Numbered from the stretch's first letter, positions 13,582-30,222 are shown. The stretch is 64,000 nucleotides of DNA from Balneolales bacterium (GCA_041749075.1 JBGTBY010000031.1:148342-212341); one strand, 5' to 3'. Numbers and translations: made by a program. The notes: generated by a model not told the origin, from the letters alone.

Positions 13582-13733
13582 ATGCTGTCCGCAAGCCTCA
13601 CTTAACATCGACGTTATGTGGCGATTCTGGATAATTCATTGTTCCAGATTACGTAGTGATTTCGGCTCGTAGGTTATTAATAAATAATCGGCTACGTCGA
13701 TTTGATAGGGCAATAAGTAACACTGTCCGCAAG
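13581..13733 (+). repeat. TGTCCGCAAG-element, locus A (two 10-mer copies at 13586 and 13724)
   Basis: GATGCTGTCCGCAAG...CCAGATTACGTAGTGATTTC...hairpin...CGATTTGATAGGGCAATAAGTAACACTGTCCGCAAG. Alignable end to end with locus B. Confidence 0.85.
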
Positions 13734-13749
13734 TTGATATAAACTCCAA

Positions 13750-15429
13750 TCAATTCTTCTCAACTTCATCGAGTTGAACGGCGACAGTCGACATCGCCAC
13801 ATCCACTGAAAAGCCCTCATTCGCCCCGATTTCTAGTCCGAATTCGGTGGTTGCGTATCCCACAAAGCTCACTCGCACCGTGTACTTCCCAGCTTCCGAT
13901 AGATTCACGACAAATTTTCCATCACCTTGTGAAACGGCTCCTCTCTGAGTGGTATCGCCGGTTTTTTTGATGGAGATGTTCGCACCCATCAATGGTTCTT
14001 TAGTACGGGAATCGAGGATTTGTCCACGTAAGAATGGGCTTGCCGCGTCGGTCTCAATCCGGCGTTGCTGAACCGAGATTCCTTGCTCAACGCCAGCAAC
14101 GGTTGGCAATCGAAACACTATCGGAACTTGAAATTGGACCTTCACTGGGCGTCCGCGCTGCATTCCGGGTGTGAATTTCACTCCGCTTATAGCTTCGATC
14201 GCCGCTTCGTCGCATCCACCACCAATGCCTCGCAACACTTTTGGCTCGGTCACATTTCCTTGCTCATCCACGATGAACTCGACCAACACACGGCCCTCGA
14301 TTCCGGCTCTGCGAGCGATTTCCGGATAACGGACCCGATCGAAAATCGCTTTCATGCCGCCAACGGGTTCCGGCATCCGCTCGACGACGATAAACACTTC
14401 CGGCGCCTCTTCAATTGGAGGTGGCGGTGGTGGTTGGTTGCTCGTGATGCGGCCCAATGTGAGGATTCCGCTGATGAGAAGGAACAGTGCGATCGGCATG
14501 ATCGCCGAAAAGCGAGTCGATGCAGGGTACGTGGTTTTCATGGTTTGAATCCGTTCGTGAATGTGTTTGGATGAGGTGGCCATCGATAAGACAACCGATG
14601 GTTTGGGTTGAGTTGGAGTGCCCACAAAGTCGAGCAATAAGGACGCATAGGATTTCAGCAGATCCGGACGCATACCGATCACATCCGCATCACAGGAGAG
14701 TTCACGATAGCGATGTAAGTCGCGTATCAACCGATGCACCATCGGATGGAAAATGAACGTCGCTTTGATGAGATGTTCCGCATATTGTGCTGCGAAATCG
14801 CCACGCCGGATGTGTGTGAGCTCATGGGATAAGATGAGGCGGCTTGCCAACTCGTCCCTCGTCTCCTCGGGGAGCACGATCACCGCGCGACGCCAGCCAA
14901 ATGTGTGGGGGATTGTGCCGGGGGAGGCCACCATCAGCCGGAACGGCTGCTTTATTCCCATTTCAAGGGCAATATCCGCAGCCAGCGATTGAAGCGATTC
15001 GGGCGCCGGCTTCAATTTGCTGGACCGATACACATGCAATGCGATGTGGTTTGCGGCGTGACGCATCCATCCCACAATCGAAGCCAACATCACGCCAAAT
15101 GTGAGCAGGCCGAGGGCGACGTACCAACTCCATCCGAACTCACTCGCATCAATGGGATCCACACGAACGACATCGTCTCCGACCACGATCAGCCAATCAT
15201 GAATCGGGGTTGCGATCAGAAATGACGGCGCTTCCGGAATCAGATTCAGAAGAAGAATCCCTGCGGGAAGGGAGGTGAGCACCGCATATCGCAGCTTGAG
15301 CTGGAGTTGCGGGTGACCCGACATCCGCCTCGCAAGGAGCAAGGAAAGAGGCGCGAGGAGCGTCCAGATGCCGACCGGCAGCCAGAAACGGAGAAGAGCG
15401 GATGACCCGAAATCGTGGAGGAATTCCAT
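13750..15429 (-). CDS. BlaR1-like M56 peptidase fused to TonB C-terminal and CarboxypepD_reg-like domains
   Basis: HELTHIRRGD zinc motif, Pro-rich linker PPPPPPIEE, TonB-C motif PEPVGGMKAIFDRVRYPEIARRAGIEGRV, and C-terminal LRGQILDSRTKEPLMGANI. Confidence 0.85.
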   Translation of the reverse strand: MEFLHDFGSSALLRFWLPVGIWTLLAPLSLLLARRMSGHPQLQLKLRYAVLTSLPAGILLLNLIPEAPSFLIATPIHDWLIVVGDDVVRVDPIDASEFGWSWYVALGLLTFGVMLASIVGWMRHAANHIALHVYRSSKLKPAPESLQSLAADIALEMGIKQPFRLMVASPGTIPHTFGWRRAVIVLPEETRDELASRLILSHELTHIRRGDFAAQYAEHLIKATFIFHPMVHRLIRDLHRYRELSCDADVIGMRPDLLKSYASLLLDFVGTPTQPKPSVVLSMATSSKHIHERIQTMKTTYPASTRFSAIMPIALFLLISGILTLGRITSNQPPPPPPIEEAPEVFIVVERMPEPVGGMKAIFDRVRYPEIARRAGIEGRVLVEFIVDEQGNVTEPKVLRGIGGGCDEAAIEAISGVKFTPGMQRGRPVKVQFQVPIVFRLPTVAGVEQGISVQQRRIETDAASPFLRGQILDSRTKEPLMGANISIKKTGDTTQRGAVSQGDGKFVVNLSEAGKYTVRVSFVGYATTEFGLEIGANEGFSVDVAMSTVAVQLDEVEKN

Positions 15430-15431
15430 GG

Positions 15432-15806
15432 TTAGTCGAGTTTTTGAATGATATCGTTGAGCGCGGCACGTTCCTCATCCGAAAGTGACTCCGATTCGGC
15501 GAGTGTTTGCACCAAAGCCATCGGTGAGCCGCGAAAGACCTTGTTCATGAGGTGGGACAGCAGTGTTTTACGGACATCGGCCGGGTCGATCGCCGCCTGA
15601 TACACATAGGAAACACCCGATTTGTTGACCTTGAGGAATCCTTTCTTGGCCAGATTCTGCATGATGGTCATGATCGTGGTGTAGGCCACGGACCGTACGC
15701 TGAGGATTCGATCGTGAACCTGGGAAACCGTTGCGGTTTTCAATTCCCAGACCACATTGAGGATTTCCATTTCGGTGTCGCCGAGAGCGAAGGTTGATTT
15801 GTTCAT
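15432..15806 (-). CDS. blaI: BlaI/MecI/CopY family transcriptional repressor
   Basis: 124 aa winged-helix protein (EMEILNVVWELKTATVSQVHDRI). Directly upstream of the blaR1-like gene. Confidence 0.85.
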   Translation of the reverse strand: MNKSTFALGDTEMEILNVVWELKTATVSQVHDRILSVRSVAYTTIMTIMQNLAKKGFLKVNKSGVSYVYQAAIDPADVRKTLLSHLMNKVFRGSPMALVQTLAESESLSDEERAALNDIIQKLD

Positions 15807-15812
15807 ACGAAC

Positions 15813-15841
15813 AACATAATACTAATGAGGTAGTATATCAA
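15813..15841 (-). promoter_or_regulatory. Candidate blaI promoter with overlapping dyad operator
   Basis: Minus strand reads TTGATA-N17-TATGTT, ending 6 nt before the blaI ATG. The 17-nt spacer contains the perfect dyad ATACTA-N6-TAGTAT (15819-15836), resembling BlaI/MecI TACTAC...GTAGTA operators. Confidence 0.5.
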
Positions 15842-16004
15842 GGGGGAAGTGGATGCTGTCCGCAAGTATCACTTAATAACACCGTTATGAGGCGAATATG
15901 GCGAATCTATAGTGCCAGATTACGTAACGATTTCAGGTCGTAGGTCGATTATTATCATGTGACTACATCGATTTGACAGGGCAATAAGTAACACTGTCCG
16001 CAAG
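15842..16004 (+). repeat. TGTCCGCAAG-element, locus B (copies at 15857 and 15995)
   Basis: GGGGGAAGTGGATGCTGTCCGCAAG...CCAGATTACGTAACGATTTC...hairpin...CGATTTGACAGGGCAATAAGTAACACTGTCCGCAAG. Confidence 0.85.
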
Positions 16005-16021
16005 TGAATCTAAACACCGTG

Positions 16022-17398
16022 CTAATTCTGCAGTCGGAACACGATCGGCATTTCCATATACGCCGGAATCGGGTACCCGTCGATGTCGAGGGCGGGGGTG
16101 AATCGTGATTGCATGATTGCCCTGACGGCCGCCTCGTCACAACCGCCACCTATTCCCCTGATTACCTTTGGATTCAAAGCTCGTCCCGTTCCGTCTACGA
16201 TAAATCCGACAACAACCTGTCCCTGGATCCTATTGCGACGGGCTTCTTCCGGATAATCGACCCTCGTGTAAAGCGATTGCATCCCACCAACCGGTTCCGG
16301 CATCTTCACAGGAATGGCTCCAAGTGGTTTTTTCATGATACGGGCTCCGTCTTCGGTCGCGATGACGAGCGAATCTCCGATTTCTGCCACATCATACACG
16401 TTGTTCGATAGTCCTTCCTCGAGTCGATACAAGGTGGCCCGGCCCGTGGCGGGATATAACCGAACCCAGCCATCTTCGCGAGTGCCAAGCAAGTGATTGA
16501 AGCCTGCGCGAACCCCATAGACACGCATTTCGGTTGGATTCTCACTGAGTTGATAGTGGGTGAATCGCTTCAGGTCTTCCTGGATTTTCACGATTCCTGC
16601 CAATGAGGAGGTATAGATATCATTTTTGAAGCGCACGATGCCATCTGGAAGTAGCTCGTGATGGGAAATACCCAGAATCAGATGGGCAAACGTGGTGTCG
16701 GGAAGAGTGTGTTCGAGGTATGCCGCACCCAATCCTCCTTCATCTAGCATCACCCATCTTCCATTCTTTTCAAATAAAATCGCATTCCGATTGTAGGGAA
16801 GCTCTTCATCCTGGTCGATGATCTGCGCCTCAAGACGTTCAAGATCCACATGAGCCAATCCGCCATTGAATCCGATGTACATTCCGGAATCGGTGGCTTG
16901 GCAGGCTTGGATGACCGGTGGCACCTGCTTCCCGTGCAGAAATTGCAACGAATCGATTGAACGAATCGCCGCATCCGTTCCTCTGATATGAAGCCAGCCA
17001 AGCGGAACGGGTCCTGCGATGAACGATCCTCGTGGCGCTTGTGCTTCCTTCAATCGTCGGTCTTCGGGATAGGATCCGACGGAAATCACCAAGCCATTTT
17101 CCAGGTCGCAAACGTGTCCGAACCAATCCGCTTCCGGCCAATCCATAGTCAACGGAACGGGTGGTTGATCGGATTTCTTCACCCAAACAGCACGATTCTC
17201 AACCATCACCAGAGTGTTTTCGATGGTACCCATTGAATGGATGAACCGATCAAGCAAGGGTTCGGATGCCAGCGTATCGATGGTGACGATAACCGGAACC
17301 TCGAGGGTAAACCATTCCGCGGGCGGCTCCGGTGCTGATGGTACGAGAGCGGATTTGCAAGAAACAAGGATGATGAAAAGCAGGGGGATGTATTTCAT
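16022..17398 (-). CDS. Lipoprotein with C-terminal TonB-like domain
   Basis: True start is probably [16 protein letters not shown] (lipobox) at 17398; the 79-aa His/Arg-rich extension in the track is unlikely. C-terminus [29 protein letters not shown]...[10 protein letters not shown] is paralogous to the BlaR1-like C-terminal region. Confidence 0.7.
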
Positions 17399-18117
17399 GG
17401 GGGATCGTGTGTTTTGGATGAATCGGCTGTAATTCGGTTCAATTCGGTCAGTTCTTTTTCGGTCATGTCGCGCCATTGTCCGATGGGAACATCCAGCACC
17501 AGATTCATGATGCGGACGCGCTTGAGCTTGACCACCTCGTAACCAAGAACCTCGCACATGCGTCGGATCTGGCGGTTCAATCCTTGTGTGAGGATGATGT
17601 TGATGCGCTTGGGACCAATTTGCTTCACGTCGCATGGCCTTGTCACGGTGTCCAATATCGGGACTCCGCTTCGCATCTTATTCAAGAATTCGGGTGTGAT
17701 GGGTTTGTCTACCATCACCACATATTCCTTTTCATGATGATTGCGCGCACGAAGAATCTTGTTCACGATGTCGCCGTCGTTGGTGAGAATGATGAGTCCT
17801 TCGCTTTCCTTATCCAGACGTCCGACCGGGAAAATGCGCTTCGGGTGCTTCACAAAATCAATGATGTTGTTCTTTTCCCGCTTCTGGTCGGTGGTGCAGA
17901 CAATACCGACGGGTTTGTTCAATAAGATGTAGACGGGCTTTTCTTTCGGGGGCGATATAGCGCGGCCATCTACCTTCACCACATCGCCATCGGTGATTTT
18001 CGTACCCATTTCAGGGACTTTCCCATTGATCGTGACTCGTCCTTGCTCGATCAGTTTATCGGCTTCGCGACGGGAACAGAAGCCGGATTCGGAGAGGAAT
18101 TTATTGATGCGGGTCAT
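17395..18117 (-). CDS. rluF: RsuA/RluF-family 23S rRNA pseudouridine synthase
   Basis: S4 domain [28 protein letters not shown]. Catalytic motif [19 protein letters not shown]. Start moved to the Met at 18117 because the upstream extension runs into repeat element C. Confidence 0.85.
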
Positions 18118-18133
18118 GAGTAAAGATACGGGA

Positions 18134-18495
18134 TGGGGGAGATGCTGTCCGCAAGTCAATCTAAACTCATCTCAAAACTCTACTTTCTGGGATTGAGAGT
18201 GTACAACTAAGTAATTAGATATCAATAGGATATAAAAAACATTGAATTTGTTATTTATATGGATTGAGTGTCCGCAAGTGGTTTTAGAGTCTAGCCTATT
18301 TATAAAACGCTGAAAGGATTTATTAGGATCGGTTTCCAGGATAGTACGGCATCAGTCTCGTCCATTATTCTATTTTAATAACAAAAAATAGCACAGATTT
18401 CGGAAAGAAATTACGTAATAAATTTGTTTCGTAAGTATAATAATAACAATGTAATACATTAATTTGACAGGACAATAAGTATCGCTGTCCGCAAG
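18134..18495 (+). repeat. TGTCCGCAAG-element, locus C (three copies at 18146, 18269, 18486)
   Basis: GGGGGAGATGCTGTCCGCAAG...GGATTGAGTGTCCGCAAG...GCACAGATTTCGGAAAGAAATTACGTAATAAA...AATTTGACAGGACAATAAGTATCGCTGTCCGCAAG. The last copy touches the stop codon of the next gene. Confidence 0.85.
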
Positions 18496-19467
18496 CTAAT
18501 CTATAATCCTATCCAATACACGCATGTTCGCGATGGCATCGGTGATGGGGATGGGGACCGGCGCATCATCGATGATGGCTTGCGAAAAGGCTTCACCCTG
18601 CAAGGTGTACATGTCGGAATAACCGAAACGAAGGACATCACACATCCCGCCGATCCTTACCGTCACGGTGCGCTCGATGTGATCCCCGGCATTATAGGGC
18701 ACATTCAATTCGAGGCTTCCTTTCGTGCCATAAATCACAGCTGATTGGCGATTTTCGAGCTGTGTGGAGCAAAGGATGCTGGCCGCACCATGCTCAAATT
18801 CAAGGATGGCGCTCGTCCAGATGTCGGTCTTGAATACTGGATCCCGCTTCACAACGGATCTCACTCCAACCGGCTCATCGCCGAATATCCATCGTGCCAA
18901 GTTCACACCATAACAGCCGATATCGAGCAAGGCTCCGCCGCCGATATCCGCCTGGTTCCTCAAATTCGCCGGATCCACATTGTAGTAGGTGAAATCGGTA
19001 TTCAGATGGCGCACATCCCCGATCCCGCCCGATCGGATGATATCGAACACGGCTGTCCATTGCGGATGAAACCGATACATGAACGCCTCCATCACCTTCA
19101 CAGTCGGACATCGCCGCTGCGCATCCAGCAATTGCTCCGCTTCTGTCGCCGTGATGGCAATCGGCTTTTCGCAAAGAACATGTTTTCCAGCCTCCATCGC
19201 CAAAATGGTATATGGCACATGCAAATGGTTCGGAAGTGGATTGTACACGGCATCGATCTCGGGATCGGCTAGCAAAGCCTCATAACTCCCATAGTGTTTT
19301 GGGATCCCCAGCTTCGCGGCCGCATCCTGCGCTGCCACCTCCGAACGTGACGATATCGCCACCACATCCCCATTCCGCATCTTTTGCATGGATGGAATCA
19401 CCCGCTTCATGCCGATATTGGCCGTACTAAGCACTCCCCATCGAACCCGTTTTGACTTTGTATCCAT
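18496..19467 (-). CDS. Gfo/Idh/MocA family oxidoreductase
   Basis: N-terminal Rossmann segment VRWGVLSTANIGMKRVIPSM and EKP motif (LCEKPIA). Confidence 0.85.
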   Translation of the reverse strand: MDTKSKRVRWGVLSTANIGMKRVIPSMQKMRNGDVVAISSRSEVAAQDAAAKLGIPKHYGSYEALLADPEIDAVYNPLPNHLHVPYTILAMEAGKHVLCEKPIAITATEAEQLLDAQRRCPTVKVMEAFMYRFHPQWTAVFDIIRSGGIGDVRHLNTDFTYYNVDPANLRNQADIGGGALLDIGCYGVNLARWIFGDEPVGVRSVVKRDPVFKTDIWTSAILEFEHGAASILCSTQLENRQSAVIYGTKGSLELNVPYNAGDHIERTVTVRIGGMCDVLRFGYSDMYTLQGEAFSQAIIDDAPVPIPITDAIANMRVLDRIID

Positions 19468-19612
19468 GCTTGAAAGTACGCATCTGTCCGCCGCTATTGA
19501 ATTATCCCAAAAATGGATTCATTCTGATGATGCGACAACTTGCTGTGTATGATGTGCTGAGTCGGCAGGTTGCGGCATTGATGACTAAATACAAATCCTT
19601 AAATTCTACTCC

Positions 19613-19987
19613 ATGATTCTGACACTCTTACTCCCAATCTTGCTAATGACCGGATTTGCCGCTGAGCCCGCTTCCGACGACCGTTTCGTTCATACGGTGT
19701 TTTTCTGGGTGAAAGCGGATGTGACCCAAGAACAAAAGGATGCTTTCTATCAAGGTCTATTGAAGCTCAAAACCATAGATGCCATCGAAACCGGTTATGT
19801 AGGTGTACCTGCTCCGACGAACCGGCCGGTGATCGATTCGAGTTATGAGTATTCCATCACCTTTGTGTTCAAATCGGCTGAAGACCAAGATGCCTATCAA
19901 GTGCATCCGGAGCATCATGAATTCATCGCCGCCTACAATCACCTTTGGGAAAAAGTGGTTGTATATGATGCGGTGTCACCTAAATAA
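19613..19987 (+). CDS. Dabb (stress-responsive A/B-barrel) domain protein with signal peptide
   Basis: 124 aa. Contains FVHTVFFWVK...GYVGVP...FVFKSAEDQDAYQVHPEH. Confidence 0.7.
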   Translation: MILTLLLPILLMTGFAAEPASDDRFVHTVFFWVKADVTQEQKDAFYQGLLKLKTIDAIETGYVGVPAPTNRPVIDSSYEYSITFVFKSAEDQDAYQVHPEHHEFIAAYNHLWEKVVVYDAVSPK

Positions 19988-19996
19988 ATCTTATCC

Positions 19997-20522
19997 ATGA
20001 AACTCATAGTCCTTCTATTGTTATTCATTCCGATGAGCGCGCAGGCGCAGACATTGCCTTTTGTGAAGGTGGACGGAAACCGGTTCGTGAATGAACATGG
20101 TGAAACTGTGGTGTTCCGTGGAATGTCCACATCCGATCCCGACCGTCTTGAAAAAGCCGGGGAAATGGAACAAAACGTACTTGCAAGCCGCCCGCGATTG
20201 GAACTCGAATGTGGTGCGGTTTCCGGTCCATCCTGCAGCCTGGCGCGAGCGAGGCGAGCAAGGGTTTCTGATATGGCTGGATGACGACATCAAATGGGCC
20301 GGTGAGCTGGGGATGAATGTGATCATCGATTGGCACAGCATCGGAAATCTGCGGACAGAAGTGTTCCAAGCACCGATTTACAACACCTCGAATGCCGAAA
20401 CCTATCGGTTTTTGCGGACGATCGCGGCGCGATATAAAGACATTCCGGTGATCGGTGATGAAACCTATGGCGAAGCGATCATCGGCTTTTTCAAGAAAAA
20501 GATGACCGAGCTGAATCGCTGA
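19997..20522 (+). pseudogene. Glycoside hydrolase family 5 (cellulase-like) remnant, frameshifted and 3'-truncated
   Basis: ORF 19997..20284 (signal peptide, FVKVDGNRFVNEHGETVVFRGMSTSDPDRLEKAG) continues in another frame in ORF 20091..20522 (WNKTYLQAARDWNSNVVRFPVHP...IIDWHS). The frame change lies at about 20157-20167. The reading frame ends before the expected NEP catalytic region. Confidence 0.6.
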
Positions 20523-20525
20523 TTA

Positions 20526-21755
20526 TTATTCTTTAAATGTGAGGATGAAGGTGGCGCCTTCGTTGGGTTTGCTATCCACTTCAATGCGACCACCCAAGCT
20601 GGTGATGTGGCTATGGATGAGGTAAAGGCCAATGCCTTTGCTGTCTTCGTTTCCATGGAAGGTTTCGCGAAAACCGAACAGCTTGTCGCGCATGGAATCG
20701 AGGTCGAATCCGAGCCCGTTGTCTGAAAAAATCACTTTAGAATAGCCGTTTCCAGATTGGGATGAGACATGCACCGATGGTCGTAAACCCGGTTTTTTGT
20801 ACTTGATAGAATTCGTGATAAGATTTAGAAACACACTTTCGAGAAACTTCAAGTTGAATCGAATCGTGGGTGCTTCACTGAAATCGAAATGGACATCCAA
20901 ATCGGCGCGATGAGTGAGGGAGCCGATCGAACCAAGCACACTGTGTAAGCATTCTTCGAGATCGCAATCTTCGAGACTCACAAGCAGGCTGTCTTTTGTA
21001 CTTAAGACATCCACATAAGCATCCAACGTTTTTTTGAGGCTGTCGGTCGCGGTTTTAAGAATTTGAATGAAACCGACGGTTTCGGGATCCTGGATTTTCG
21101 ACAGGTCGATGAGCTGAAACACGGCGAGCAAGTTATTCACTGGTGAGCGCAGATCATGAGCCGTAGTATAGGTGAGCTGCTTGAGGTCGCTGTTGATCCG
21201 CGTGAAGGAAGTGAGGAGTTCGTTCCGTGTGAGATCGAGCTTTTTCTTATGAGTGATGTTCTTGGCGATGGCATAGATCAGGCCGGCATCCCCGACAGGA
21301 ATGGAGGTCCAAGCCAGCCAAACCACATCGCCATTTTTGGTGATATACCGATTATCGAAATTAAGTAATGGCGAACCTTTAATCAGATGCTCGCGATGTT
21401 TTGCGGTAAGTTCACGATCATCCGGGTGGATGAATTCGGATATGGGCCGCGATCGAAGCTCATCAACCGAATACCCCAACAGTTGGCAAACAGCGGGGTT
21501 CACTTTCCGGAAATATCCATCGTTACCGGCTACGATCAAAAGATCGTGAGTGAGTTCGAAAAAAAGGTCGAGGTCGATGGCGTCGTCGATGCCCACAAAC
21601 GTAGTGGCTAAGTCGCAGGGGTTCTGTTGGTTAGCAATATATCGAAACGGGGTGGATTCATCAGGATGGAGTCGTTCGATGCAGCATATTTGCTGTGAAT
21701 CCGGACACGATGAGAAGCATAAGGAGATCGGATGGGGATGGTGGTGGGTCTCCAA
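20526..21755 (-). CDS. PAS-domain sensor histidine kinase
   Basis: PAS region (VNPAVCQLLGYSVDELRSRPISEFIHPDD), H-box TAHDLRSPVNNL, N-box NLITNSIKY, G-boxes DNGLGFD and GIGLYL. Start is uncertain because the first ~32 codons overlap the upstream ORF; an in-frame GTG at FVGIDD is possible. Confidence 0.8.
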   Translation of the reverse strand: METHHHPHPISLCFSSCPDSQQICCIERLHPDESTPFRYIANQQNPCDLATTFVGIDDAIDLDLFFELTHDLLIVAGNDGYFRKVNPAVCQLLGYSVDELRSRPISEFIHPDDRELTAKHREHLIKGSPLLNFDNRYITKNGDVVWLAWTSIPVGDAGLIYAIAKNITHKKKLDLTRNELLTSFTRINSDLKQLTYTTAHDLRSPVNNLLAVFQLIDLSKIQDPETVGFIQILKTATDSLKKTLDAYVDVLSTKDSLLVSLEDCDLEECLHSVLGSIGSLTHRADLDVHFDFSEAPTIRFNLKFLESVFLNLITNSIKYKKPGLRPSVHVSSQSGNGYSKVIFSDNGLGFDLDSMRDKLFGFRETFHGNEDSKGIGLYLIHSHITSLGGRIEVDSKPNEGATFILTFKE

Positions 21756-22146
21756 CGGTCGCCCTGTGGTTGAATCCGATGTATCGCCACGCTATGGAGG
21801 AATATAATGTGAGGACGACGCGCTTGGTGGAGTCGCTTATCTCGAAGCGTCGTGTGATCAAGCCCTTCGATTTCATGAGATAATCTTTGCCGTTGAGATG
21901 GATGCGGACTTTGGAATTCCATTTGGGTTGGATGCTACCAATGGCGATGTCGTTCATGACAATCGACGAGCTGAAATTAAAGAGGGATGTGGGGACGAAT
22001 TGAATTGTCGAATCCGCGAACGTTGCCAAGCCACGTGTTCCGAACAGGCTTTGGGATTTGACGCGGGCGAGAGTCGTGTCGTTATGGGTCAGGATGGAGA
22101 AAGATCCCTTAAAGGATGTGGTGCGAAGGAATAAATTGTTATTCAT
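21661..22146 (-). CDS. Hypothetical protein
   Basis: 161-aa ORF with no recognised family. Its last ~95 nt overlap the annotated kinase N-terminus. Confidence 0.35.
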   Translation of the reverse strand: MNNNLFLRTTSFKGSFSILTHNDTTLARVKSQSLFGTRGLATFADSTIQFVPTSLFNFSSSIVMNDIAIGSIQPKWNSKVRIHLNGKDYLMKSKGLITRRFEISDSTKRVVLTLYSSIAWRYIGFNHRATVGDPPPSPSDLLMLLIVSGFTANMLHRTTPS

Positions 22147-22156
22147 GAAGTATTAG

Positions 22157-22364
22157 TGTCCGCAAGTCCTCGATGTATTAATTCCGATGCAATAGAACCG
22201 ATTTTATAGGACGATGGTACGTGACAAATTGTGAAATGTGTGCAGGAGCCGGTTGACAAGCACAGATTCCACAGAGAAATTTCGTAATGATTCTTGTAAG
22301 TATCATTATGGTATTATTGAGGATAAGATTATTTGATAGGACAAAAAGTAACGCTGTCCGCAAG
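22157..22364 (+). repeat. TGTCCGCAAG-element, locus D (copies at 22157 and 22355)
   Basis: TGTCCGCAAG...GCACAGATTCCACAGAGAAATTTCGTAATGA...TTATTTGATAGGACAAAAAGTAACGCTGTCCGCAAG. Confidence 0.85.
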
Positions 22365-22384
22365 TCAACATAGATACCATGCAA

Positions 22385-23236
22385 TCAATCATCCAAAATC
22401 ACAACGGTCGCTCGTAGCTGATGCGCAGAAAAATACCCATACCCACCAATGATGTTCGTTGGGGCATTGATGGGTTCATTCGCTAGCGAAGCGATCAATC
22501 CTCCCGTGCGTCGACGCGCATCTAGGAATCGGTAATAACCCTCTTCTATATTCGACAAGACAACGATGACGGTATCTCCAGCCAGACCTGGATCCAGATC
22601 GATCTGTCGTCGGATTCGCCTTTCTTCAGCCACACGGTCTGTGAAAACCTCGCTGTGTAGCAAGAGATTCGAGTCTCGAAAAAAGAGAGAATCCAAATCA
22701 TCTCCTCCAACCGGCACATTGTACACATGGAGGGCGAAATAATTCTGTCCGACAGGATCATCAATAAAAATACGGAGGCGTTTCAAATCGAATACACCCA
22801 AACGTGTATTTTCATAGGTTGCGGTGTCGATGGAAATAGGTAGCATCCTCGTTGCTATCGCTTGTACCGACAGCCCGGTCGTTGAATCATAAACAGACAG
22901 ATAAACGAGTGATCCTGCCGCACTTTCTGGAGATTCACCACCGTAGAATCCAGGAATTCCTAGTGTTGGAAGAGTATCGGTTGTCAGTGAATTCGAGACC
23001 AAAATTCGTCCATCTGACACGAACAAGGAAGCGATTAAATCTTCTTCCAATGCATTGACAGATCGGCCGGAAAGTGGTGAGAAACTGCGAGTGGCGGTCA
23101 CAATCATGGTTTCGTTGTCTATCATCACACTCGATATGACCAAGGCTTCGTCAGCCGGATCTACCTTGAGAGGCAATTCGAATAGCTCGCATGAAGCGAG
23201 AATTATGACAAATAAGAATGGATAGAGTCGCATCAT
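22385..23236 (-). CDS. DUF4249-family lipoprotein (TonB-dependent-receptor partner)
   Basis: MMRLYPFLFVIILASCE lipobox. Sits immediately downstream of a CarboxypepD_reg-type TBDR, the usual DUF4249 context. Confidence 0.65.
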   Translation of the reverse strand: MMRLYPFLFVIILASCELFELPLKVDPADEALVISSVMIDNETMIVTATRSFSPLSGRSVNALEEDLIASLFVSDGRILVSNSLTTDTLPTLGIPGFYGGESPESAAGSLVYLSVYDSTTGLSVQAIATRMLPISIDTATYENTRLGVFDLKRLRIFIDDPVGQNYFALHVYNVPVGGDDLDSLFFRDSNLLLHSEVFTDRVAEERRIRRQIDLDPGLAGDTVIVVLSNIEEGYYRFLDARRRTGGLIASLANEPINAPTNIIGGYGYFSAHQLRATVVILDD

Positions 23237-25524
23237 TTGCTGTGAAATCGAAAATTATACGCGATGGATGGAAACACACCGAACAAGCCTTGCTGCATGT
23301 ATTCAAGGCTACTTCCGTTGGACCTGAAGCTGACTCTGTACGGCGCCGCGCGGTTATAAAAATTATAGGCACTCAAATGCCATTCACCTTGTCCATACTC
23401 TCGAAGGCGACCTTTGATGATCAGATTGATGTCCAATCGGTGGGATGAGGCCAATTCGATCGCATTTCGCTTGCTGTAAATAGGAACCAATTCGACGCCG
23501 GTAAGTGATGCATTCGGCATAAGGTATTGTCCCGTCTGGGCAGTCATATGGGCACCCGACATATAAACCCAACTCACTGACCAAAGCATGTTTTTCGATA
23601 AATCCACCATCGCAACAGCAGAGATGTTGTGTCTGCGGTCGAATCGATCAGGATAAGATTCGCCACCATTCAAACCTTCGAATTGACGATCCGTTTTGGA
23701 CAACGTGTATCCGATCCATCCGTTCGCCCACCCGCTGTGTTTCTGGATAAACAGCTCGAATCCACGTGAAAGCCCGTTTCCGCGCAACAATTCCGACTCG
23801 AAACGATCATTCAATATGAGTCGTGCGCCTTCTTTGTATTCAATGAGGTTTTCCATCCGTTTCGTAAACAACTCGACCGAATAGGTGATATCCAGCACCT
23901 TTTTGGATCCGAAATATCCGATACTGACTTGGTGGGCGGATTGGGGCTTCACATTTTCAGTAACCGGATACCAAAGATCTGTGGGAAGGGCGATGGCCGA
24001 CGACGAAACCCGATGCATGTATTGCCGCATCCGGCTATATCCAAATTTGATTGAATGATCTGCGCTGATCAGATATCGGATTGATGATCGTGGCTCGAAT
24101 CCACTATATGTCTTACCCGACCATGCCGACGAATACCGAATTCCATTCTCCATCCTCCAGCGATCATTCACATCCCAATCGACAGAGCCATGTAGTTCCG
24201 CTTCGGTACTACGGATATTGGGACTGTCAGAGGTTCCAATCAACTCCGAAATGTTTCCTGACGTGTTCACCACATTTGGACGAAATCCATGTGTCACCAC
24301 ACTTCCACCATATTGATATCGAAGTCCGTGTCTCGGGAAGGTTTCCCAATCCAACTTGATTCCGATGTCTTGGATTTTTGAGGTGATGAGAATCGAATTA
24401 TCGACGAAATCGCCTCGTATATCATAATTGAAGCGGGTTTGGTGCAAGGTGACATTCGAAAACGTTTTTCCACTTGCATACACATGGTTCCATCGAGCCG
24501 TCGTGATCCAATTCCCGAGAGTGAACCCGAAACCGAGGTCTTCTTCATTCTCGCTGCGGTCTTGAAAATTGAGGATATCATCTCCGAAATACGATGAAAG
24601 GTAGACGCGATCCGATTCCGAAATCCGGTAATTCAACTTCGCATTGACATCATAAAAATAGTAGGGAAGATCCACGTTCACCGATTTCAGCACTTGATCT
24701 ATATACGTGCGTCGACCCGCAAGCATGAAACTCATCCGATCTTTGATCAATGGCCCGTCGATCATGATACGCGATGTGAGCAAACCCACGCCTCCGCGCA
24801 CATTCCATCGTTCAAGACTCCCTTCGTTCATTCGGATGTCCAGAACGGATGACAATCGGCCTCCATAACGTGCTGGAAACGCACCTTTAACAAGTTGGAT
24901 GTCGTTTATCGCGTCTGTATTGAATACCGAGAAAAATCCAAACAGATGACCCACATTATAGATGACGGCATCATCAAGCAACACTAGATTTTGATCATCG
25001 GTCCCACCGCGGACGAACATGCCACCGGTTGCTTCATTTCCTTGGGTTACACCAGGCATGAGCTGCATCACTTTCAGGAGATCGGCTTCGCCAGCGAAGG
25101 ATGGAATTCGATTCACATCCGCGGGTTTGATGGAAATCGAACCCATGCGAACGGATTGAATCGCTTCTTGATGGATCCGATCGTCGGTGACGGTCACATC
25201 ACCCAGTTGTGTCGATTGCTCGACCAGCAGGATTTCTAGGATGGATGTGGAATCGGATAGGATTCGGATGTGTTTCGTTTCGAATCCGATATACGAAATG
25301 CGAACATCCGCTGGAATACGGGGAAGTGTGAGTGAGAAGAATCCGTAGTTGTTGGTCACGGTACCTCGACCACTTCCTTCATCCAATATTGTGGCTCCCA
25401 ATAGGGCTTCTTTATCAAAAGAATCATACACATACCCGCTGATGGTGACTTGAGCCAAGGTCACTTTCGTCACCCCAAAAGACATCAGAATCAGGAATGC
25501 GAGGAATCGGTTCATAGGCGCCAT
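23233..25524 (-). CDS. TonB-dependent receptor with N-terminal CarboxypepD_reg-like domain
   Basis: VTISGYVYDSFDKEALLGATI (CarboxypepD_reg-like). Plug motif GGMFVRGGTDDQNLVLLDDAVIYN. 763 aa barrel. Confidence 0.85.
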   Translation of the reverse strand: MAPMNRFLAFLILMSFGVTKVTLAQVTISGYVYDSFDKEALLGATILDEGSGRGTVTNNYGFFSLTLPRIPADVRISYIGFETKHIRILSDSTSILEILLVEQSTQLGDVTVTDDRIHQEAIQSVRMGSISIKPADVNRIPSFAGEADLLKVMQLMPGVTQGNEATGGMFVRGGTDDQNLVLLDDAVIYNVGHLFGFFSVFNTDAINDIQLVKGAFPARYGGRLSSVLDIRMNEGSLERWNVRGGVGLLTSRIMIDGPLIKDRMSFMLAGRRTYIDQVLKSVNVDLPYYFYDVNAKLNYRISESDRVYLSSYFGDDILNFQDRSENEEDLGFGFTLGNWITTARWNHVYASGKTFSNVTLHQTRFNYDIRGDFVDNSILITSKIQDIGIKLDWETFPRHGLRYQYGGSVVTHGFRPNVVNTSGNISELIGTSDSPNIRSTEAELHGSVDWDVNDRWRMENGIRYSSAWSGKTYSGFEPRSSIRYLISADHSIKFGYSRMRQYMHRVSSSAIALPTDLWYPVTENVKPQSAHQVSIGYFGSKKVLDITYSVELFTKRMENLIEYKEGARLILNDRFESELLRGNGLSRGFELFIQKHSGWANGWIGYTLSKTDRQFEGLNGGESYPDRFDRRHNISAVAMVDLSKNMLWSVSWVYMSGAHMTAQTGQYLMPNASLTGVELVPIYSKRNAIELASSHRLDINLIIKGRLREYGQGEWHLSAYNFYNRAAPYRVSFRSNGSSLEYMQQGLFGVFPSIAYNFRFHSK

Positions 25525-26216
25525 TCGATTCCGAAATGTGTGCCTCGTGATGTGCCTCTGAATCGGGACCCATCGATTTTCATGAGCCAGAGGGTTGGTT
25601 GCTGTTCGAGGAGGAGAAACGAATTTCGGGTGATTCGGAACCGCATTCCGAGCATGGCACCAAGGCCGAATTGGGATCCATTTGATGCGAAAAAGCGGTC
25701 AGAACCGTGACGAATCCGGCTTCCGGTTGGAAAACCAAGTAACAGATGCCCACCTAGTCGGAATGAGAAGCGATTGTCCGATAGATACAGGCGATTGTAC
25801 CCTCCAGAAACATTGAAGAATTGGTTTTGGGATCGGATTCGTAGTGTATCGGAGTCCACATTCAATAAATAAAGCGATGTCATGGATTCGGAACGCCCGA
25901 AACCAGCCCAGGCTTCGGCATTGGGATGATCGGAATTCTGGAAACGGAATCGGAATTGAATTCCACCCGTGGAATGCCTGGGCACGAGTGTGAAAAATGC
26001 AGCACTATCAGCAGGATGGAAAAGGATGGGATTTCGGGAATCCGCTACGAAATTGGAATATGAAGGGCCCCTTAGATCACCCTCAAAGACGGATAGGACC
26101 GCATCCGAGCCAGTCAATCTCCATCCACTTATTTGTGCGAAAAGAGGCGCCGGAATAAGGCAAGTTAGCGCAAAAACGAGTGTGACCGTGGTTGAAAAAA
26201 AGGTTGATCGACACAT
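25512..26216 (-). CDS. Hypothetical secreted, outer-membrane beta-barrel-like protein
   Basis: Likely start MCRSTFFSTTVTLVFALTCLIPAPLFAQ (signal peptide). Alternating beta-strand-like pattern. First gene of the TBDR-DUF4249 operon. Confidence 0.45.
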   Translation of the reverse strand: MCRSTFFSTTVTLVFALTCLIPAPLFAQISGWRLTGSDAVLSVFEGDLRGPSYSNFVADSRNPILFHPADSAAFFTLVPRHSTGGIQFRFRFQNSDHPNAEAWAGFGRSESMTSLYLLNVDSDTLRIRSQNQFFNVSGGYNRLYLSDNRFSFRLGGHLLLGFPTGSRIRHGSDRFFASNGSQFGLGAMLGMRFRITRNSFLLLEQQPTLWLMKIDGSRFRGTSRGTHFGIEWRL

Positions 26217-26322
26217 GTTGGCCTGCTCAAAATGAGCTATTGATCCCAAATTCATTCTTGTGAAGGGGCAGTATATTCACAATTCATCTGAAAAGCATAA
26301 GTTGCACACCATGATGCAACAT

Positions 26323-26427
26323 GCACAGATTCCACAGATTAATTACGTAATGAAATTGTGATGTAATTGTAATTTAAATAAATGTTTACGAGCATTTGAC
26401 AGTGGAGTAAGTAACACTGTCCGCAAG
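26323..26427 (+). repeat. TGTCCGCAAG-element, locus E (core only, one copy at 26418)
   Basis: GCACAGATTCCACAGATTAATTACGTAATGA...CATTTGACAGTGGAGTAAGTAACACTGTCCGCAAG. Ends 32 nt upstream of the yfcC-like ATG. Confidence 0.85.
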
Positions 26428-26459
26428 TCTACATAACAATCTATCAAATCGTCCTGTTC

Positions 26460-27941
26460 ATGAACTTCCCCACGCCGCACACCACCCTATTCGTCATCCT
26501 CATCCTCGCGGCGACGGCCACATGGCTCCTCCCCGCCGGACAGTACGATACCCTGCGTTACTCCGCCGAAGATTCGGCCCTTATTCTGAGTTCTCTCGAC
26601 ACCGAACGCCAGCTAGCACCTACCCAAGCCACGCTCGACAGCCTTGGCCTACCCACCCGCATCGCTCAGTTCACGAATGGTGAGCTCACGCGTCCAGTGA
26701 AAGTGCCAAACACGTATCGCAGCCTCGAACCAGCCGGCCAGGGCCCCATCTCGATTCTTTACGCCGCATTGAAAGGCACCTATGATGCCATCGACATCAT
26801 CCTGCTCGTCATGATGATCGGAGGCTTCATCCGAATTTATAACACATCCGGTGTATTGCAAATCGGCATCCAACATCTGGCATTGCGATTTCGTGGCCAC
26901 GAACGATGGCTCATCGTCATCATTGCGACACTGATGACCGCCGGTGGAACCACGTTCGGACTCGGTGAAGAAACCATCGCATTCTATCCGATCTTGGTTC
27001 CGATTTTTCTCGCGGCGGGCTACGACCGATTGGTTCCGGTCGCTGTGATTTTCGCTGGATCCCAATTCGGGATCATGGCATCCACGGTCAATCCGTTCAG
27101 CGTCATCATCGCATCGGACGCGGCAGGAGTGGCATGGGACAGCGGTATCGCCCTTCGGATTGCCATGCTCATTCTCGGATTTGCCGCGATTGTCTGGTAC
27201 ACCATCCGATATGCTGAATCGGTGAGAAAAAATCCAACGATGAGTTTGCTTTCTTTGGATGAGCGTGCGGATGCGCTTCCCTATTCGACCGACATCCCGA
27301 CTGACATCACACCCATGACATGGCGCCATAAAGCCATGCTTTCACTATTCGGATTGACGTTTGTGGCCATGATCGTCGGTATCACGATGTTTCATTGGTG
27401 GATGCTCGAAATGTCGGCGCTGTTTCTGGGTTCGGCCGTGTTATCTGGCATCCTACTCGGATTGAAAGAAAAAACACTCGTCCATGAATTCATTCTAGGA
27501 GCGGGCGAGATGGTTGGCGTGTCGCTCATCATCGGTTTAGCTCGCGGTGTGACCGTTCTGATGAACGATGGGTTGATCATCGATACGGTTCTGCACAGTG
27601 CGACAGGACTGATGGCCGGAATGCCTCAATCCGTGTTTCTTTTCGGACTCATTGTCGTGTTTTTTGTGCTGTGCTTTTTCATCACAAGCACATCCGGCTT
27701 GGCCTTGATCACCATGCCAATTTTCGGAGCCCTTGCCATCAGCAATGGGATTGCTGCCGAATCGATTGTGACGGCCTACTCCTTCGGCGTCGGAATGATG
27801 TTGATGATCGCTCCAACAGGGCTGGTGTTACCGAGCTTGGCGATGGTGAATGTGAAGCTTTCCACCTGGCTGAGATTCATCATGCCGCTGATCGGCATCC
27901 TGTTCGTGATATCAGCGTTGTTGATCGTGGTTGGAGGATAG
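26460..27941 (+). CDS. YfcC/DcuC-like anion/amino-acid transporter family membrane protein
   Basis: 493 aa with more than 10 TM segments. YfcC-like N-terminus (PHTTLFVILILAA). Confidence 0.65.
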   Translation: MNFPTPHTTLFVILILAATATWLLPAGQYDTLRYSAEDSALILSSLDTERQLAPTQATLDSLGLPTRIAQFTNGELTRPVKVPNTYRSLEPAGQGPISILYAALKGTYDAIDIILLVMMIGGFIRIYNTSGVLQIGIQHLALRFRGHERWLIVIIATLMTAGGTTFGLGEETIAFYPILVPIFLAAGYDRLVPVAVIFAGSQFGIMASTVNPFSVIIASDAAGVAWDSGIALRIAMLILGFAAIVWYTIRYAESVRKNPTMSLLSLDERADALPYSTDIPTDITPMTWRHKAMLSLFGLTFVAMIVGITMFHWWMLEMSALFLGSAVLSGILLGLKEKTLVHEFILGAGEMVGVSLIIGLARGVTVLMNDGLIIDTVLHSATGLMAGMPQSVFLFGLIVVFFVLCFFITSTSGLALITMPIFGALAISNGIAAESIVTAYSFGVGMMLMIAPTGLVLPSLAMVNVKLSTWLRFIMPLIGILFVISALLIVVGG

Positions 27942-27959
27942 TTAGGAGTGTATGTAGAC

Positions 27960-28166
27960 TGTCCGCAAGTGGTCAAACTGCCGATTCCGATTCCATATCA
28001 TCGTTTTTTAAGCTTCGTTTCTAGATTTGTTCTGTGAAAACGGTGCACGGGGTCTCGTTTTGTACAAATTCCACAGATAAATTACGTAACGATTTATCTT
28101 GTTAAGATTAAATATAATAATGAGTTGCGACTATTTGATAGCGCAATAAGTATGAGTGTCCGCAAG
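27960..28166 (+). repeat. TGTCCGCAAG-element, locus F (copies at 27960 and 28157)
   Basis: TGTCCGCAAGTGG...GTACAAATTCCACAGATAAATTACGTAACGA...CTATTTGATAGCGCAATAAGTATGAGTGTCCGCAAG. Confidence 0.85.
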
Positions 28167-28184
28167 TATCACTTTACTCAGCGC

Positions 28185-28988
28185 TTATCTCTTCAACTCT
28201 TCTAATTTCTTTGTCGCGAACGCCTTCATCTCGTCGTTCCCTACCTCAATCATGCGTTCATAAGCGGCGATCGCTTCAGGAATATTCCCGAGTTCTTCAT
28301 GCGACATTCCAAGCATGTAATAGACCGACCCATTTTCCGGATCCAGTCGAACGGCTTCCACCAAGTGCGGAATGGCCCGCGTATAGTCTCGATCCTGAAT
28401 GTGGCTCAATCCGATCACCGCTTTCGTGTTCCCATCCAGTGGGAAGGACTCGCTCAAACGTGTTGCAACGCTTCGGATATTCCGTGTGGGTGGATGTTCC
28501 ATGGCGATCCACTGTTGAAGGTGATCGTGCATGGTCATCAAAAACACGTCACGCGCCTCCTCCATCGGCTGATTTTTCTCCCATAACCACTGATGCTCAA
28601 AACGGTCGCTCGCATCCAGTAGATTCAGCATGAGGTCGGCCTGATCGTCGAAATACCCGCGCTGATTCATCGCGAAAATGGTTTTGAGCCACACGTCCAA
28701 GCGCCGCGGTTGAATGCCTACGGCCGTATTCAGATGCCGCAACGCCAATGTGAACAGCGAATCGGAACCGCTCCGGGAAGATCGCTCATAGTGAAAATTG
28801 AATGATGCCACATGCATATCGATATCATTCGGCGCAAACGTCTTCCATCTATTCAGATAGGCTTCCGTGGATGTGGAATCACCCTGATCAATCAGTTGAT
28901 ACGCGGTCTCAAGATCGTATTGAAGTTGCGCGGAAAGCGGACTCGCTATGGAAATAAGAATGAGAAGAAAAAACAGTCGGGATGTCAT
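28185..28988 (-). CDS. Tetratricopeptide-repeat protein with signal peptide
   Basis: Likely start MTSRLFFLLILISIASPLSAQ (the ORF extends to 29009). TPR-like AIPHLVEAVRLDPENGSVYYMLGMSHEELGNIPEAIAAYERMIEV. Confidence 0.7.
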   Translation of the reverse strand: MTSRLFFLLILISIASPLSAQLQYDLETAYQLIDQGDSTSTEAYLNRWKTFAPNDIDMHVASFNFHYERSSRSGSDSLFTLALRHLNTAVGIQPRRLDVWLKTIFAMNQRGYFDDQADLMLNLLDASDRFEHQWLWEKNQPMEEARDVFLMTMHDHLQQWIAMEHPPTRNIRSVATRLSESFPLDGNTKAVIGLSHIQDRDYTRAIPHLVEAVRLDPENGSVYYMLGMSHEELGNIPEAIAAYERMIEVGNDEMKAFATKKLEELKR

Positions 28989-29010
28989 TCTATCAATATA
29001 CCGACCCATT

Positions 29011-29117
29011 CTGCACAGATTTCACAGTTTTTTTACGTAATGAATCCTCTGTATAAGAGTAGTAAATACAGAATCATGCGACGATTTGATAGGTCAATAA
29101 GTATGTGTGTCCGCAAG
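29011..29117 (+). repeat. TGTCCGCAAG-element, locus G (core only, one copy at 29108)
   Basis: CTGCACAGATTTCACAGTTTTTTTACGTAATGA...hairpin TCTGTAT/ATACAGA...CGATTTGATAGGTCAATAAGTATGTGTGTCCGCAAG. Confidence 0.85.
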
Positions 29118-29145
29118 TCCCCTTTCTCCTTACTTTTCCCATCTT

Positions 29146-30222
29146 ATGATCTCCCAAATCCTATCTCCGACCTTCGTCCTCGACGAAGCCCGCGCCCGCG
29201 CCAATATCCGCTTCATGGTTGAAAAGGCCGCTGCGCACAACCTCCGCCTTCGTCCCCATCTCAAAACGCCGCAATCGATCGATGTGGCCCGATGGTATCG
29301 GGATGTGGGCGTTACCTGCGTCACGGTGTCGTCAATCGACATGGCCGAGTACTTCGCCTCCGACGGCTGGACCGACATCACCCTCGCCATCCCTCTCAAT
29401 ATCCGCGAATGGCCACGGATCCAAGCCCTGGCCTCACGTATCCGGCTGAACCTTGTGGTGGATTCTGAAGTTGTGTTGAACCTGATTCCCGATTCCCGAT
29501 TCCCTATTTCTGTCTTCATCAAAATCGACGCGGGGTACCATCGAACCGGCATCCCCGCCAACAATCACGACCGAATCGCCGCCCTAGTAAACAAACTCAA
29601 CGCATCACCTGGCTTCGAGTTTACCGGCTTCATCACCCACGCCGGACACAGTTACGCCTGCCGATCCCATTCCGACATCCGTGCATTGCATGCGGAGCAA
29701 TTGCGCCAACTACTACCCCTTAAACAGTTCGGCGGCATTCTTTCCATCGGCGATACGCCGACTCTCACGGTTTCCGAACATTTTGACGGCATCGATGAGA
29801 TCCGACCCGGGAATTTCATCTTCTACGACATGAAGATGGTTCAGATTTCGGCATGTACTCCTGAGAAGATTGCGGTTTGCATGGTAGTGCCGGTCATCAG
29901 CACCCATCCCGATCGAAATGAAGTCATCATCAACGCCGGCTCCGTCCATTTCTCAAAAGATTCTTTTGTGGATGATGCCGGACAGCAACGCTTCGGGCAG
30001 GTGGTCCAACTGACCGACTCTGGTTGGGGTGAAGTGGTTGATGGCGCCCATGTCCGTAGTCTATGTCAAGAACATGGATTTGTGACGGGTCCGCCGGAGT
30101 ACATCAGATCGATCAAAATCGGCGATTTGGTCGGTGTGCTTCCTATCCATTCCTGCCTCACCGCAGATTGCATGGGCGAATTTTTGACCACGGCCGGTAA
30201 CAGGCTCGTAATGATGAAGTAA
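29146..30222 (+). CDS. D-TA family PLP enzyme (alanine-racemase N-terminal fold; D-threonine aldolase / D-serine dehydratase-like)
   Basis: RPHLKTPQS (PLP lysine context). The track start at 29107 lies inside repeat element G (ATGTGTGTCCGCAAG), so the start is moved to MISQILSPTFVLDE. Confidence 0.75.
   Translation: MISQILSPTFVLDEARARANIRFMVEKAAAHNLRLRPHLKTPQSIDVARWYRDVGVTCVTVSSIDMAEYFASDGWTDITLAIPLNIREWPRIQALASRIRLNLVVDSEVVLNLIPDSRFPISVFIKIDAGYHRTGIPANNHDRIAALVNKLNASPGFEFTGFITHAGHSYACRSHSDIRALHAEQLRQLLPLKQFGGILSIGDTPTLTVSEHFDGIDEIRPGNFIFYDMKMVQISACTPEKIAVCMVVPVISTHPDRNEVIINAGSVHFSKDSFVDDAGQQRFGQVVQLTDSGWGEVVDGAHVRSLCQEHGFVTGPPEYIRSIKIGDLVGVLPIHSCLTADCMGEFLTTAGNRLVMMK

Follow-up and report, generated by a model that had tools for sequence, protein, structure and literature searches.

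A 64-kb stretch of DNA from the genome of an uncultured member of the Chitinophagales (GCA_041749075.1, JBGTBY010000031.1:148342-212341; hereafter the window, whose positions serve as coordinates below) contains 13 copies of the 10-mer TGTCCGCAAG, which probably belong to an atypical, hairpin-less system related to the repetitive extragenic palindromes (REP) and their REP-associated tyrosine transposases (RAYT), that is, to a genus-specific mosaic repeat family under host-level selection. The copies of this core are confined to positions 13586-29117, where they are distributed over seven spacers, and start at 13586, 13724, 15857, 15995, 18146, 18269, 18486, 22157, 22355, 26418, 27960, 28157 and 29108; all 13 are on the plus strand, the original prediction having described the boundary sites as sharing one orientation. 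Shuffled versions of the window contain on average 0.22 copies, with a maximum of two. The fuller conserved word is C-TGTCCGCAAG-T, with a C-poor box of approximately 25 nt on its upstream side and a G-poor tail of approximately 20 nt on its downstream side. The core is non-palindromic, only ACT...AGT surrounding the asymmetric 7-mer GTCCGCA. The seven spacers, which are capped by the core at 0-50 nt from the ends of coding sequences (CDS), display a G+C content of 34-41%, compared to approximately 51% for the genes and the genome. This 15.5-kb stretch is the densest cluster of cores in the genome (13 of 73 copies). The arrangement was found to be identical in an independent assembly (SRR28170462, retrieved by exact-protein look-ups) and was also observed in the sister species G003; it is therefore not an assembly artefact.

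The genome from which the window was taken (G000), a 3.3-Mb metagenome-assembled genome, carries 73 copies of the core, of which 64 (88%) are intergenic, and three congeners carry 61, 56 and 80 copies. Background counts were obtained for eight genomes of sister genera and for 29 genomes of other families, other genera having at most five copies. The 73 copies in G000 show no orientation preference with respect to their flanking genes (21, 15, 14 and 13 in the four configurations), and they are independent of GC skew and of gene-strand bias. A replication-oriented motif (KOPS, Chi or a lagging-strand target) was rejected on the latter ground, and a promoter or terminator motif on the former.

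The candidate enzyme is encoded outside the window by a single-copy gene (G000:C30:152018-152662, 214 aa) that is itself located within a convergent pair of cores. Its product is a RAYT-like transposase of the HUH/Y1 type. It contains the motifs CLMPNHLHLL and RYIHRNPV; residues N55, H56, H58 and Y146 do not vary among 39 homologues, and homologues of the protein are called RayT by JGI. Its sole sequence match in the PDB is 4ER8, the TnpA_REP protein of E. coli (E 5e-7). The AlphaFold model of the protein (pLDDT 91) has its best fold match with the same entry (E 8e-8, TM 0.67), followed by the transposases of IS200, IS608 and ISDra2; the protein thus combines the HUH and Tyr motifs with the predicted fold of TnpA_REP. 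TnpB (PF07282) is absent from the four genomes of the genus, and an IS200/IS605 element with TnpB or omega-RNA was rejected for that reason.

Two side observations concern related genes. A second, classical Y1/IS200-like gene is present at G000:C12:71559-71897 (155 aa; PF01797, 103 bits) and is followed by four REP-type hairpins (CCGAGGGCTNNAGCCCTCGG), forming a separate low-copy REP system; because it has REP hairpins of its own and lacks a 10-mer in its vicinity, it was discarded as the enzyme of the 10-mer. Three RAYT homologues from another Chitinophagales genus (L189, L190 and L191) contain a perfect 15-18-bp palindrome (CCAAACCTCCAAGGTCTG/CAGACCTTGGAGGTTTGG) within the open reading frame (ORF), and REP insertions inside tnpA_REP genes of subclass 2.4 have been described likewise (Quentin et al. 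2018, PMC6006769).

Position, shared end sequences and phylogenetic distribution link the gene for this predicted enzyme to the repeat. The gene is single-copy and syntenic in four congeners (100, 98, 63 and 59% identity), being located between genes for an S9 peptidase and a histidine kinase in these genomes as well as in L197, L199 and L201, and it is missing from the eight genomes of sister genera that are devoid of the repeat. In G000 to G003 and the metagenome contigs L199 and L201 it is bracketed by convergent cores at conserved distances, approximately 190-200 nt upstream and 55-75 nt downstream; on C30 of G000, it is surrounded by plus-strand cores at 151850 and 151936 and, beyond its other end, by minus-strand cores at 152840 and 153145. 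The L197 orthologue (49% identity) has the variant core TGTCCGCAAC on both sides, and in seven of seven lineages the gene is thereby placed between inverted copies of a core. Among species genomes, this variant gave a single Bacteroidetes match, which is attributed to chance and is accompanied by neither the gene nor an enrichment. The tails beside the two cores of the gene, TCCCTCTAAACTCC and TCTACATAAACA, correspond to the two tail types of short doublets of cores found on C24 and, because both types match, these doublets look like an internally deleted form of the RAYT-like unit. In addition, the GCACAGATTYCACAG box of the window modules is located approximately 100 nt upstream of the RAYT-like ORF in every lineage. 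Such features are characteristic of a REP/RAYT system (REPtron).

We infer that the RAYT-like HUH/Y1 enzyme, probably a domesticated transposase, recognises the C-TGTCCGCAAG-T family and has spread and reshuffled it. It would nick and rejoin single-stranded DNA at the core, presumably at CAAG/T, to which the inter-species breaks described below point, and such events could have inserted modules into short spacers and, now and then, moved or removed the genes next to them. Its own gene occupies the filler position of the short, non-autonomous doublets.

The core is shared by several otherwise unrelated modules. A 105-nt module, which ends at the right-hand core of window spacers, is composed of GCACAGATTYCACAGA, TTACGTAAYGATTT, approximately 40 variable nt, the stretch ATTTGAYAGGnCAATAAGTAnnnC and the core; its 22 copies, from four species, align without gaps. 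Two window spacers contain 138-type elements, in which paired direct cores are exactly 138 nt apart, a spacing that is kept in nine of nine copies from five lineages, including G001 with its interior of just approximately 47% identity, and two others contain 197-type elements with direct cores approximately 197 nt apart. Close pairs of cores in the genome are either direct (16) or convergent (nine), with no divergent pair. The short non-autonomous doublets have 75-100 nt of filler between their cores. Left-flank and right-flank families were seen in every combination, and left-flank sequences recur as reverse complements to the right of other cores, the register being constant (11 or more of 14 positions match at 23 sites, versus 3-4 in controls). 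The core is therefore the junction at which modules were joined, and it is here that the mosaic changes from one module to the next. A mini-ORF (MLSAS) at the left ends was also considered and dismissed: its ATG is present in one flank family only, the others reading ATAC or ACAC.

The convergent doublets found elsewhere in G000, of the form TGTCCGCAAG...CTTGCGGACA, have cores 85-108 nt apart, inverted repeats of approximately 24 nt and TG...CA ends, and could thus be taken for miniature inverted-repeat transposable elements of a DDE transposon with 5'-TG...CA-3' termini, whose transposase was lost or is located elsewhere. No target-site duplications were found at the outer edges of these pairs, however, and there are no decayed copies, while the elements are orthologous across species that are approximately 80% identical. 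Moreover, most pairs are direct, and no gene other than that of the HUH enzyme was found between convergent cores. Such an origin is very unlikely.

Several observations weigh against a REP/RAYT-like system. The hairpin is the defining feature of REP sequences and the known substrate of Y1 enzymes, and neither a hairpin nor a GTAG-type foot was found around the core by folding, pair-probability or complementarity tests: the 60 nt around each core fold on either strand no better than shuffled sequences (z approximately -0.15), folding with DNA parameters gave no base pair with a mean probability above 0.16, and the complementarity between the two flanks of a site equals that of a permutation null in which the flanks are taken from different sites. 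The pairs in the window are direct, not inverted doublets of the REPIN type. The 214-aa protein is devoid of the WQ motif, which reads GTAG in the E. coli TnpA_REP, and has LF/FI in its place. It reaches E 7e-16 and 58 bits with the NCBIfam model REP_Tyr_transpos (NF047646), below the cut-off of 80, and 15-20 bits with Pfam Y1_Tnp, for which the cut-off is 23, so that it is missed by Pfam at default threshold; scoring under both curated thresholds, it is a divergent member of the family. The repeat flanks further genes as well, so that the bracketing of the RAYT-like gene could in principle be incidental. Finally, the perfect conservation of the core, the absence of decayed copies and the exact spacing of 105 and 138 nt look more like the properties of a host cis-element than of a selfish repeat.

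Structure searches on the modules were likewise negative. The 22 copies of the 105-nt module have no consensus structure according to alifold, and their variable part folds weakly (mean z -0.5). For the 138-type element, alifold on both strands paired invariant boxes only, without covariation. This element alone can form a stem of 8-12 bp, between its left tail and its right box (12 of 12 pairs in G002), again without covariation. Rfam gave no match in the region or at 18 other copy-bearing loci, and a literature search for the 10-mer returned unrelated primers only.

These results also bear on the original prediction, in which the sites had been compared to the attC sites of an integron cassette array lacking its integrase (CALIN). 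Co-oriented sites do lie at block boundaries, and accessory genes, including toxin-antitoxin genes, adjoin copies elsewhere in the genome. However, the attC-like fold of the bottom strand with extrahelical bases, for which a test had been suggested, was not recovered: no stem is formed by either strand, R''/L''-L'/R' boxes are missing, and the sites are direct 10-mers, not inverted R''/R' cores. Together with the lack of covariation, the absence of an integrase at any cluster, the orthology of all 13 sites in G003, and blocks of mixed gene orientation that include housekeeping genes, this leaves hardly any credence for a CALIN. The prediction had further depended on a recombinase somewhere in the genome. 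Four genes of G000 belong to PF00589, two of them Xer-like and conserved in the genus, and none is located near a core cluster; the genome does encode a candidate enzyme for breaking and joining DNA, but it is the RAYT-like HUH protein and not an integron integrase.

The core is strongly conserved at each locus. All 13 window cores are kept at orthologous positions in G003, where the spacers are just 65-83% identical, and cores with one mismatch are not in excess (16 intergenic copies, versus 17 for a control word), from which it follows that the core is under strong purifying selection at the level of the individual locus, a pattern not expected of a MITE family in decay. Selection acts on the module lengths (exactly 105 and 138 nt) as well as on the core. 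Since the copies stay intact across species divergence, the elements probably serve the host too, as judged from these sequence comparisons. A stronger version of this idea, that the core and its fixed-length modules are primarily host cis-elements (sites for a genus-specific DNA-binding protein, promoter or small-RNA elements, gyrase or nucleoid sites) to which the flanking of the RAYT-like gene is secondary, is considered unlikely. The all-or-none conservation of the core, with each of its orthologous copies retained, would suit this explanation, as would the gap-free alignment of the 105-nt module and a 138-nt spacing that outlasts the divergence of the interior; the GCACAGATTYCACAG...TTACGTAAYGATTT box, which precedes the RAYT-like ORF and several other genes by approximately 100 nt, is promoter-like in its position. 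However, the boxes differ from the -33/-7 promoter consensus of the Bacteroidetes, the copies have no preferred orientation and many of them lie between convergent genes, and neither an Rfam match nor a consensus RNA structure was found. The mosaic shuffling of the modules and the rule that inverted pairs are always convergent would also remain unexplained.

Perfect conservation could alternatively result from biased natural transformation, if the 10-mer were a DNA uptake sequence. Like such a sequence, it is a non-palindromic, genus-specific and perfectly conserved word of 10-12 nt, which is intergenic and often forms convergent pairs after genes. Known uptake sequences occur approximately once per kb, whereas the core is present at approximately one copy per 45 kb; its copies are strongly clustered and embedded within long conserved modules, and the link with the RAYT-like gene is not explained. 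This possibility is highly improbable.

Comparison with relatives showed that the cores are frequent break and join points. The original prediction, which asked whether blocks are present, absent or permuted exactly at the 10-mers, was borne out in part: breaks between species do occur at cores, the blaR1-blaI unit being the clearest case, but a 20-kb region of C24 with 13 further cores has an identical gene order in four species, its two differences in gene content not being located at cores. In the window region, the gene order of G003 is that of G000. Two blocks are missing from G001, G002 and the metagenome contig L105, the one close relative found in a metagenome scan with rluF. The difference at the first locus consists of a unit of 2271 nt from core to core (13734-16004), comprising blaR1-blaI and the second 138-type element, which G000 and G003 carry and G001, G002 and L105 lack; homology between G000 and G002 stops at 13733, the last base of the core. 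The neighbouring gene for a TonB_C lipoprotein is present in both the filled and the empty state, in a shorter form in G002, and the tail next to it differs between the two states, for which a single exchange at the core is therefore insufficient. Opposite window position 28166/28167, G003 (L004) has an extra ORF of approximately 460 nt (approximately 150 aa) right after the core, which is absent from G000 and G002, and a 13-nt indel right after CAAGT is found in G003 at 29118. The DcuC gene is preceded by a plus-strand core in G000 and G003 and by a minus-strand core in G002 and L105. A foreign origin of the blocks was rejected, their GC being equal to the genome mean, and the gene blocks are no more than candidate mobile cassettes.

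Two loci elsewhere in G000 have toxin-related genes adjoining the core. At C22:72097-73529 (locus L092), two tandem units of approximately 650 nt encoding ParE-family toxins are each bounded by direct 10-mers, and a gene for a PIN-domain protein adjoins another core at C13:31029.

Breaks of this kind could be produced by conservative site-specific recombination through a tyrosine recombinase, the core being comparable to att, dif or lox and the segments between cores, gene blocks included, being exchangeable in the manner of pdif modules on Acinetobacter plasmids. In the core, ACT-GTCCGCA-AGT, an asymmetric 7-mer is enclosed by a short inverted repeat; the flanks occur in all four combinations, as for attP, attB, attL and attR, and are found again as reverse complements on the opposite side of other copies; the inter-species breaks come directly after CAAG or CAAGT; the blaR1-blaI unit extends from 10-mer to 10-mer, as the ParE units are bounded by direct 10-mers; and a pair of Xer-like recombinases is conserved across the genus. 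Yet no recombinase gene is located near any cluster, and the Xer pair, being universal in bacteria, gives no account of a genus-specific site. Within a site, the arms past ACT and AGT are asymmetric. Copies in both orientations on one replicon should lead to frequent inversions and deletions, whereas the order of C24 is conserved in four species in spite of its 13 copies, and the tails next to the TonB_C gene, which differ between the filled and empty states, are not explained by a single exchange at the core. This makes a recombinase site quite unlikely.

By analogy with relaxases, which act between two oriT sites, the core might alternatively be a nick and strand-transfer site at which a domesticated HUH enzyme can join any two copies, in which case the intervening segments, non-coding modules as well as gene units such as blaR1-blaI and the ParE units, would be exchangeable. 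We regard this as doubtful. If it held, the system would represent a host-kept, single-strand, HUH-based analogue of the integron, and the lengths of 105 and 138 nt would reflect the geometry of the enzyme complex.

The window is partitioned by these co-oriented copies of one site, as had been proposed, into blocks of ordinary chromosomal genes whose content was confirmed with Pfam. Downstream of the FA_hydroxylase gene, the left core of the first 138-type element (element A, 13570..13747, plus strand) is located at 13586..13595, 4 nt past the stop codon. Element A is composed of the left 10-mer, a CACTTAAC..CCGTTATGTGGCG box, a TTACGTAGTGATTT box, an AT-rich stretch, a ATTTGATAGGGCAATAAGTAACAC box, the right 10-mer (13724-13733) and a tail, and shows 79% identity over 178 nt with element B (15841..16018, plus strand; 10-mers at 15857-15866 and 15995-16004). 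Between them, on the minus strand, are the genes for a BlaR1-like protein (M56, TonB_C and CarboxypepD_reg domains) and BlaI (13750..15806), absent from G001, G002 and L105. Element B is followed by rluF and the TonB_C lipoprotein gene (16022..18117, minus strand), which constitute ordinary chromosomal DNA present in all relatives. A composite spacer (18146..18495, plus strand) then displays three direct 10-mers, at 18146, 18269 and 18486, its final 105 nt (18391-18495) corresponding to the right-end type of module. The stop codon of the next gene, encoding a GFO/IDH oxidoreductase, abuts the last of these 10-mers; together with genes for a Dabb protein, a GH5 fragment, a PAS histidine kinase and a hypothetical protein, it forms the first part of the second block missing from G001, G002 and L105 (18496..22146, no single strand). 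The second part, encoding DUF4249, a TonB-dependent receptor and a hypothetical outer membrane protein (22385..26255, minus strand), is separated from the first by a 197-type element (22157..22364, plus strand) with its left 10-mer at 22157 and a 105-nt module (22260-22364) that ends in the 10-mer at 22355. The remaining elements, all on the plus strand, are a 105-nt module at 26323..26427 (GCACAGATTCCACAGA, TTACGTAATGA, a variable stretch, ATTTGACAGTGGAGTAAGTAACAC and the 10-mer at 26418), 32 nt upstream of the ATG of the DcuC/YfcC-like gene; a 197-type element in the spacer between this gene and the TPR gene (27960..28166; 10-mers at 27960 and 28157, module at 28062-28166); and a 105-nt module at 29013..29117, which has its 10-mer at 29108 as the terminal part and is separated by 28 nt from the ATG of an alanine-racemase-like gene downstream.

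That the elements abut CDS ends, a central point of the original prediction, is real. According to the ORF table and the sequences, the right-hand 10-mers are located 16, 17, 0, 20, 32, 18 and 28 nt from the next CDS boundary, exactly as claimed. Left copies had been placed 4-35 nt after the previous CDS, and the measured distances of 4, 50, 28, 10 and 18 nt agree with this except for the copy at 15857, which exceeds the range. Such abutting is expected, because elements of 100-220 nt occupy spacers that were originally short; spacer growth is exemplified on C24 by a spacer whose length is 35 nt in G003 but 720 nt in G000. For annotation purposes, the repeat family accounts for most of the non-coding DNA of the region.

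Other features of the window and its genome were noted. The rluF and TonB_C lipoprotein genes (16022-18117) are coupled by an ATGA overlap. The lipoprotein comprises 457 aa in G000 versus 114 aa for its G002 orthologue (signal peptide and TonB_C, 58% identical), and approximately 340 central residues are therefore lineage-specific. The 143-aa ORF at 20091-20522 gives only a partial match to the GH5 cellulase profile (positions 23-127 of 272) and is probably a gene remnant. The spacer between the DUF4342 and FA_hydroxylase genes (12618-12756) consists entirely of 8-nt words (GTTAAAGC, GTGAAAAC and their complements), which form an imperfect long palindrome. Words with an 8-nt period (GGAATCGG.., GATGCGGG.. 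and AAAGCGTG..) rank first in frequency among the intergenic 10-mers of G000, in which GTCATCCTGAGC occurs approximately 96 times.

To our knowledge, REP/RAYT systems have been well studied in Proteobacteria only, in which a GTAG-footed hairpin is the sequence read by the enzyme. In the uncultured Chitinophagales genus described here, the repeat that accompanies a clear RAYT homologue shows no detectable hairpin; if the link between the repeat and the enzyme is real, the range of targets for Y1 enzymes is wider. The perfect conservation of the 10-mer core, the exact module lengths and the reshuffling of flanks at the core add to the value of this case. With one gene and approximately 70 identical sites, it would, given such a link, be a clean system for the study of the long persistence of repeats and of their possible part in the movement of neighbouring genes.

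Among known systems, integron attC sites and CALINs are similar in that co-oriented sites lie between gene blocks, with toxin-antitoxin or accessory genes as some of the neighbours. They differ from the sites described here, which have no folded bottom strand and no inverted core sites, are stable at orthologous positions, and separate housekeeping genes in both orientations. The pdif (XerC/D) modules of Acinetobacter plasmids and the oriT-oriT recombination of HUH relaxases have in common with the present family that gene modules are bounded by copies of one short site and that the flanks are reshuffled at an invariant core; in contrast to those systems, the family has neither an 11-6-11 Xer site nor a plasmid setting. 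Closer is the combination of REP or BIME sequences with a RAYT (the REPtron, or REPIN-RAYT system, as known from E. coli, 4ER8, and from the REPINs of Pseudomonas): a single-copy, vertically inherited HUH/Y1 gene is located between inverted repeats, tens of extragenic copies are dispersed in a lineage-specific manner and change with the gene, the short convergent doublets resemble REPINs, and the mosaic elements resemble BIMEs. REP repeats, however, are imperfect palindromes of 20-40 nt with a 5' tetranucleotide GTAG or GGAG, and the present repeat differs on both counts, its core of 10-12 nt being non-palindromic, without a hairpin and without a GTAG foot. Furthermore, most pairs, and every pair in the window, are direct with exact spacings of 138 and approximately 197 nt, a cloud of mutated copies is missing, and the protein is without a WQ motif and falls under the NCBIfam cut-off. 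Compared with TnpA_REP subclass 2.6 (Bertels group 5; PMC6006769), the W motif is LF/FI instead of WQ and no secondary structure could be demonstrated; by its motifs, the protein is nevertheless similar to members of this subclass, which belong to the same phylum and have the HuH motif NH[LIV]H and a Y motif near YIH[QN]NP (YIHRNP here). The Bacteroidetes TnpA_REP genes of subclass 2.6 are flanked by "atypical" repeats, of which more copies are present in the genome (Quentin et al. 2018, PMC6006769).

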